Source: a virus
Taxonomy: Duplodnaviria; Heunggongvirae; Uroviricota; Caudoviricetes
DNA: 37,170 bases
Reading direction: 5' to 3' (one strand)
IMG/VR virus record: IMGVR_UViG_2585427743_000015
Both the position numbers and the translations under genes were made by a program. A model generated the notes under the pieces. It was not told where the DNA came from and did no database searches. It saw only the letters and a list, made by a program, of their open reading frames with translations. Shown here in pieces: positions 36,114 through 36,254 of this stretch (its first letter is position 1; each line of letters begins with the position of its first letter).

Positions 36114-36167
36114 GAAGGTGGTTTCACGACACTGCTTATTGCTTTGATTTTATTCTTATCTTTCCCA

Positions 36168-36254
36168 TGGTACCCGGAGCGGGACTTGAACCCGCACAGC
36201 GCGAACGCCGAGGGATTTTAAATCCCTTGTGTCTACCGATTCCACCATCCGGGC
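36168..36254 (-). tRNA. leuZ: tRNA-Leu (anticodon UAA)
   Basis: Reverse complement reads GCCCGGATGGTGGAATCGGTAGACACAAGGGATTTAAAATCCCTCGGCG...GGGTTCAAGTCCCGCTCCGGGTACCA; anticodon loop TTTAAAA, long variable arm, CCA encoded. Confidence 0.9.

Follow-up and report, generated by a model that had tools for sequence, protein, structure and literature searches.

The window, by which we mean the whole stretch of 37,170 nucleotides analysed here, very probably contains a full-length prophage of the P2 family (Peduoviridae, P88/Xuanwuvirus-like) that corresponds, in intact form, to prophage Sp13 of E. coli O157 Sakai and was inserted into the anticodon loop of leuZ by an HP1-type integrase. The right end of the prophage is at position 36222 within leuZ and its left end lies ~106 bp beyond the window. 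In the RefSeq annotation of the TW10722 prophage, which is 99.6-99.9% identical to the window over all 37 kb, the genes and their order are of P2 type: int, repressor, replication gene A, portal, terminase, capsid, lysis, baseplate, tail fibre, sheath, tube, tape measure, D, and ogr. The features on which the argument rests are as follows.

1-1002, minus strand: tyrosine integrase of HP1 type, 333 aa (Pfam Int_N and Phage_integrase), with its stop codon at 1-3
34567-34827, plus strand: ogr late-gene activator, the last P2 backbone gene (Pfam Ogr_Delta, E=5e-14)
34860-35275, plus strand: hok/sok-type type I toxin-antitoxin locus, with a leader carrying a sok-like region, a Hok ORF, and a terminator at 35244-35271 (terminator scan)
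35296-35835, minus strand: moron cassette, whose gene at 35347-35628 encodes a secreted protein of 93 aa with four cysteines
35853-35975, plus strand: truncated second hok leader, ~120 nt similar by pairwise alignment to the 5′ end of the hok locus, with no Hok ORF
36052-36084, plus strand: candidate arm-type integrase sites, TATCGCCACACCATCGCCACTTTACCGCCATTT, seen as motif repeats on the attP arm
36099-36222, no strand: attR identity block (the att ‘core’ in the broad sense), a 124-bp exact attL/attR repeat in TW10722 that is also delimited by the Sp13 junctions
36104-36125, minus strand: terminator hairpin of the leuZ operon, phage-supplied copy, with a fold of -7.7 kcal/mol versus -13.4 in the TW10722 copy
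36168-36254, minus strand: leuZ, an intact tRNA-Leu(UAA) gene (ARAGORN and Rfam)
36267-36340, minus strand: cysT, tRNA-Cys, chromosomal and in the same operon (ARAGORN and Rfam)
36395-36470, minus strand: glyW, tRNA-Gly, chromosomal and in the same operon (ARAGORN and Rfam)
36622-37170, minus strand: pgsA, chromosomal, following the tRNA genes

The three tRNA genes all lie on the minus strand, so that the leuZ 3′ end points left, into the prophage, and 1340 bp separate the end of ogr at 34827 from leuZ. An earlier sequence-only reading had placed the prophage against the glyW-cysT-leuZ operon with ~1.3 kb between ogr and the tRNA, had the 3′ end of leuZ directed into the island, and had put a hok-like locus and a secreted protein in the intervening stretch. 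The coordinates bear this out, with the minus-strand leuZ called by both tRNA searches, a Hok/Gef ORF at 35017-35157, and a signal-peptide ORF at 35347-35628. Positions 36114-36254 begin in the hairpin loop of the leuZ terminator and extend to the leuZ 5′ end. The leuZ, cysT, and glyW genes of the window are identical to the operon of an empty site, with 0 mismatches. The leuZ gene is regenerated whole, as a full tRNA was called by ARAGORN and Rfam; its 5′ part is chromosomal, and the 55 nt at its 3′ end come from the phage. The right end of the window was matched by all 5426 complete E. coli genomes, most of them only from 36101 rightward. The sequence-only reading had proposed comparison with an uninterrupted chromosome, and strain 14EC047 provides it: yecA is followed by 195 bp and leuZ, the 37 kb element is absent, the repeat occurs once, and similarity to the window begins at 36101.

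The integrase gene is at the end far from the tRNA. Since the window stops at the int stop codon, attL falls outside it, ~106 bp beyond the left edge, and the earlier statement that the att core could not be confirmed within the window was correct. We read the left junction from other genomes with the same prophage and not from the source strain. In TW10722 the order is yecA, the native terminator, the leuZ 3′ 55 nt ending GGGATTTTAAA, 106 bp, and the int stop; O157:H7 H6437 and the 520873 prophage record share this junction. The direct repeat of the leuZ 3′ part that had been expected beyond int was found in all three; in TW10722 it is 124 bp long and extends 69 bp past the tRNA, being composed of 69 nt downstream of leuZ, terminator included, and the 55-nt leuZ 3′ half. 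BLAST of window positions 36101-36222 against the TW10722 attL gave 122 bp with 1 mismatch. Identity between attL and attR stops exactly at the 7-nt anticodon loop (36216-36222). The proposal of tRNA 3′-end integration is upheld in that a leuZ 3′ repeat flanks the element, but it needs correction in that identity ends in the anticodon loop and not at the tRNA 3′ end. An att core elsewhere, for example just after ogr, had been named as evidence against this arrangement; our search of the window found no att-core-like sequence downstream of ogr, and the sole exact match to GAGGGATTTTAAA is at 36210-36222. The 520873 record, considered as a free-phage source of attP, was rejected as a predicted prophage cut that includes yecA and served as an example of attL; it was the single record with this int module in the phage collection, which contained no free-phage genome carrying it.

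The exact points of strand exchange within the 124-bp identity are not readable from sequence, and by analogy with HP1 we infer that they are placed within the 7-nt anticodon loop. Sequence variants limit the exchange on the other side. Two positions downstream of the tRNA distinguish the O157:H7 attR copy from its attL counterpart (cttaG in attR against cttaT in attL, and acG against acA), and at both of them attL has the empty-site allele. As these variants are absent from attL, and the excised Sp13 attP keeps the attR allele, the block next to leuZ is phage-borne and exchange took place on the tRNA side of the variants.

The integrase and the architecture of the site are of HP1 type. The window integrase matched PDB 1AIH, the structure of the HP1 integrase catalytic domain (E=4.6e-75), and by tblastn was 58.5% identical to HP1 Int over 331 aa, the full length. 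At the amino acid level it is 100% identical to Int of TW10722 and of O157:H7 H6437, and Int of the 520873 record is 96% identical to it. The annotated HP1 attP (NC_001697, 251-694) contains the arm repeats TATCGCCATTG and AACCGCCACTTTGTCGCCAG, a tRNA-Lys gene, a tRNA-Leu(UAA) 3′ half ending GGCGAGGGATTTTAAA, an arm with AACCGCCAGCCAATCGCCAG, and int on the minus strand. The prophage has, in the same order, TATCGCCACACCATCGCCACTTTACCGCCATTT at 36052-36084, the 124-bp host-identical block ending GCCGAGGGATTTTAAA, an arm with ATTGTCACTTTTTATCGCCACTTTTTACC, and int. The two systems share the tRNA-Leu(UAA) target and an identical core, GAGGGATTTTAAA, that ends at the anticodon loop; in both, attP holds additional host sequence past the tRNA 3′ end, CGCCA-type repeats are present on both arms, and int adjoins attP and is transcribed toward it. 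They differ in that a complete tRNA-Lys gene separates the arm from the tRNA-Leu half in HP1, whereas a 69-nt spacer with the terminator is present here; arm spacing is also different, and the remaining genome is that of a Hpunavirus in HP1 and P88-like in the window. The int/att module is of HP1 type, with the tRNA-Leu(UAA) target conserved between Haemophilus and Escherichia phages.

The 11-mer ATCGCCACTTT is common to the arm at 36052-36084 and the int-proximal arm, in direct orientation. Two ATCGCCAC sites lie 11 bp apart at 36053-36071, and the motif occurs at the corresponding places in the annotated HP1 attP, as AACCGCCACTTTGTCGCCAG and AACCGCCAGCCAATCGCCAG. Across the whole window five ATCGCCAC sites were found versus 1.4 expected, a count reached by 3 of 100 shuffles; the enrichment is not strong. 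Conservation of the motif suggests that the integrase may bind these ATCGCCAC repeats.

These elements can be assembled into a model of integration. The attP carries a 124-bp copy of host sequence, consisting of the leuZ 3′ half and 69 nt downstream with its rho-independent terminator. Recombination at the anticodon-loop end joins the chromosomal leuZ 5′ half to the phage 3′ half and terminator, forming attR (36099-36222) and keeping the tRNA operon intact, while the native leuZ 3′ half and terminator are displaced and become attL, beside yecA and int and ~106 bp past the edge of the window. The int-side 106-bp arm is predicted to start AACTATCAACC and to precede the 124-bp block ending GGGATTTTAAA, followed by yecA, and the predicted attP junction reads ...ATAC AAAAAAACC...GGGATTTTAAA AACTATC.... 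All of the DNA from ogr to the identity block is phage DNA, with the conserved hok/sok-type post-segregational killing locus, the swappable moron cassette, the dead hok-leader fragment, and the attP arm in that order.

Sp13, which we take to be CP-933T in EDL933, is a close, already described relative of the window prophage and provides experimental data on excision. The leuZ gene is a named prophage site in the genomics of Shiga-toxin-producing E. coli, and Sp13 of Sakai has been assigned to it (PMC8190617). Asadulghani et al. (2009), in whose description O157 Sakai has no other P2-like prophage, found that Sp13 was amplified, transcribed, and circularised, with circular DNA increasing ~30-fold after mitomycin C; the circular form was detected and its attP sequenced (PMC2669165). 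In Figure S5 of that paper, the text of which was machine-read with letters dropped, the left junction (L) is gcaca, core, and aacta, the excised junction (P) is atacg, core with the cttag allele, and aacta, and the right junction (R) is atacg, core, and tccct (PMC2669165). The attP reconstructed here is the same as the sequenced attP of excised Sp13, which places the 1.3 kb inside the prophage. The ‘atacg’ of the Sp13 attP is the equivalent of window ~36095-36099 and is joined to the int-side arm. The Sp13 attP PCR primer was GTTTAACAGAGGTCCTGGTTCACT (PMC2669165), which maps in the O157 equivalent of window ~35940-35963, inside the hok-leader remnant. The position of this primer shows that the hok-leader fragment and the arm belong to the excised circle. 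For the leuZ junction, its structure, the empty site, the integrase family, and the intact leuZ were established here, and excision to the predicted attP by the published work on Sp13.

The window prophage and Sp13 share the site between yecA and leuZ, the attL and attR junctions, a core of ~122-124 bp, the secreted-protein gene, the hok-leader remnant, and the arm sequence, and the integrase of this type in O157:H7 H6437 is the one noted above as 100% identical to that of the window. Over 35296-36100 the O157 segment is ~92% identical to the window. They differ in that Sp13 is degraded: in H6437 an IS30 lies in gene D, ogr and hok have been lost through a deletion from D to ~35296, and genes for the head and for packaging are absent, whereas the P2-type gene set is complete in the window copy. 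As judged by the integrase, the att junctions, and the chromosomal site, all of which are shared, the window prophage is a member of the Sakai Sp13/leuZ prophage lineage. The prophage type and its leuZ site were already known, and the att core had been determined experimentally for Sp13.

The 1.3 kb between ogr and leuZ has four parts, namely the hok/sok-type locus, the secreted-protein cassette, the truncated hok leader, and the attP arm. The end of D, ogr, and hok/sok are 95-97% identical at the nucleotide level to phages P88, Chuche, and Shae_phiSM, and for the hok/sok locus this range of identity also includes P88_4B11 and PhiR44_2; similarity stops at ~35230-35280, near the hok terminator. 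The Hok ORF at 35017-35157 encodes 46 aa and matched Pfam HOK_GEF (E=3.7e-7, 30.1 bits versus a threshold of 22) and PHROG 251, ‘MokW-like host killing’ (E=2.5e-23). The Rfam sok match scored 47.3 bits (E=4e-9), below the gathering score of 59, and a search of the hok locus for a long mok-like overlapping ORF found none. Similar to the hok/sok locus of plasmid R1 and the chromosomal hokA-E loci, the locus consists of a 46-aa Hok/Gef ORF with a structured leader, in which the sok-like match lies, and a terminator at the 3′ end. It departs from them in the sub-threshold sok, in the mok-like ORF that the search did not find, and in having a second copy here that is a leader fragment alone. This second copy shares with the locus a repeat of 43 nt at 79% identity (34918-34960 versus 35921-35963). 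A plausible origin is recombination between a P88-like phage with the cassette and a leuZ-type phage with its own hok near attP, which would have left the truncated leader behind.

The stretch beyond the hok locus, from 35285 to 36110, gave no match in a blastn search of the phage collection. This result, together with the end of the phage matches at ~35230-35280, would fit a composite or tandem island in which 35296-36100 is the relic of an older, separate leuZ element and the present prophage ends at ~35290. The dead hok leader within the segment and the occurrence of the cassette elsewhere in another context, which makes the region mosaic, also agree with such an origin, but the right end of the segment carries HP1-like arm repeats at 36052-36084 that adjoin the identity block, and ~35290 has neither a leuZ-core-like sequence nor an arm repeat. 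Neither an att core inside the element nor arm repeats of P2 type, which tandem elements would have, turned up in a search of the window. The published attP of Sp13 is equally hard to reconcile with a separate relic, as its primer lies in the hok-leader remnant and its ‘atacg’ is joined to the int-side arm. In the loci that were fetched, the segment lies at leuZ beside P2-like genes or is IS-truncated, the cassette of strain 33-6 being the exception. We consider a separate older element very unlikely. The sequence-only reading had suggested remnants of an older element, and the truncated hok leader (~35853-35975) is the sole trace of one, but it lies within the excising phage genome and is not a separate relic.

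In phage P2, attP is directly after ogr. A P2-style att site at that position with a non-tRNA target would leave the 1.3 kb and leuZ as ordinary chromosome, and the placement of int at the end away from the tRNA is compatible with this. However, the 1.3 kb is absent from the empty site, the leuZ repeat is present at both ends of the element, Int is of HP1 type, and no TGTGGACA P2-type arm repeat is present in the window, so that this arrangement is extremely improbable. We give next to no credence to the view that the 124-bp duplication is not an att pair and was left by gene conversion or homologous recombination following an unrelated insertion. An identity of 124 bp is long for an att pair and would allow RecA-dependent exchange, but it stops precisely at the anticodon loop, as in the HP1 attP, which has host tRNA sequence of its own beside that core; the same junctions occur in unrelated strains, and mitomycin C-enhanced excision to a precise attP was sequenced for Sp13.

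With the prophage ending within leuZ at 36222, the hok locus, the secreted-protein gene, and the hok-leader fragment are assigned to the phage. The segment 35285-36100 was present in 646 of 5426 complete E. coli genomes, and because this right-end segment occurs in ~12% of genomes, definition of the boundary is useful for prophage typing; beyond correct annotation it has little weight. In all fetched cases the segment was at leuZ, near a P2-like prophage or IS-truncated remains, except for a copy of the cassette at copA in strain 33-6. Two sets of matches were considered and rejected as exceptions. The O157:H7 match from 35296 onward is not a segment without a prophage, as it is the degraded copy in which the deletion joins D to ~35296, and the partial copies in H109 and H111 are not independent elements, as they are IS1-truncated remains at leuZ. 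At leuZ in E. coli strain 10, only ogr, hok, and the cargo segment are kept, and the rest of the prophage has given way to fragments of the IS3 family and to ltrA, the reverse transcriptase gene of a group II intron.

The interval between hok and attP/int carries different genes in six relatives, namely com and a methyltransferase in Chuche, an unrelated 80-aa ORF in P88, five hypothetical ORFs in P88_4B11, a zinc-ribbon gene and a TagO-like gene in 500465-2 and Shae_phiSM, and an acetyltransferase with a homologue of the secreted protein in strain 33-6. This variation identifies the interval as a cargo hotspot. The second cargo hotspot suggested earlier is thereby supported, but hok, which had been counted as part of the cargo, is a conserved backbone locus of Xuanwuvirus-group phages. 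The phages of that group (P88, Chuche, P88_4B11, and Shae_phiSM of Citrobacter) resemble the window prophage in their P2-type gene order and variable hok-attP interval, and differ in having other integrases and attachment sites and unrelated cargo, with P88 carrying the TGTGGACA (P2-type) motif.

The 93-aa product of the moron cassette has a signal peptide and belongs to PHROG 27544, to which no function is assigned (E=1e-58). Its 244 homologues come from Proteobacteria and metagenomes, and Cys, Gly, and Arg positions are invariant among them. Searches with this protein found no family in Pfam or NCBIfam and, by profile, no sequence relative among solved structures. The AlphaFold2 model (pLDDT 79.7) contains three helices and a cysteine-rich loop, and Foldseek found no match to it in the PDB. 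P88 gp53, which is in the same position, was considered as a diverged homologue and rejected because the two gave no alignment. In strain 33-6, a cassette 85% identical to that of the window lies beside copA, after hok and a serine acetyltransferase gene, with homology ending at ~35835, and is directly followed by TGTGGACA repeats like those beside the P88 integrase. We take these repeats to be P2-type arm sites. The 33-6 locus (NZ_CP050031, 2800-4625), with hok, the serine acetyltransferase, and the secreted-protein homologue upstream of copA and ending in the TGTGGACA-type repeats, resembles the right-hand terminus of a P2-type element or remnant located at another attachment site.

Between the secreted-protein gene and leuZ, positions 36085-36113 of the window read A23 followed by C6 in place of the usual tract, AACAAAATACAAATACAAAAAAACCACCC. 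In five relatives (TW10722, DS26-1, A0 34/86, strain 10, and O157 H6437) the sequence is AACAAAATACAAATAC(A/G)AAAAAACCACCC, with an equal length of 29 nt. The A23C6 tract differs by six substitutions, all of which make homopolymers and one of which breaks a stem pair of the leuZ terminator. It has the appearance of an error in the consensus or in base calling, the alternative being a private mutation. The secreted-protein gene (35347-35628) is co-directional with the strong glyW-cysT-leuZ operon, and the phage copy of the terminator and ~0.5 kb lie between them. If real, the tract could act as a mutable homopolymer switch, with read-through from the tRNA operon driving prophage cargo in the lysogen, although we regard this as very unlikely.

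Several other features of the prophage were noted. Between int and the repressor, where P2 has no genes, a DUF2511 gene (1008-1355) and a gene for a 216-aa protein annotated as membrane with weak similarity to Flk (1385-2035) are present, both on the minus strand; this stretch (1008-2035) gives the prophage a second cargo position, at its left end. In the early region, adjacent Rfam matches to isrK (65.9 bits) and C4 antisense RNA (87.1 bits) on the plus strand at 6262-6459 mark a P1/P7-type antisense immunity element in a P2-like prophage. Further accessory genes in the TW10722 annotation are an SPFH-domain protein at 5318-6148, a ParM-type pair (ParM and a partition/stability protein) at 10090-11365, and a DUF3800 protein at 11597-12403; the ParM pair suggests possible plasmid-like maintenance. 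The tail-fibre gene (24222-27077) contains at 24749-25760 7.7 tandem copies of a 132-bp (44-codon) repeat with a 92% match, and since the repeat number differs in the TW10722 prophage, tail-fibre length varies between close relatives.
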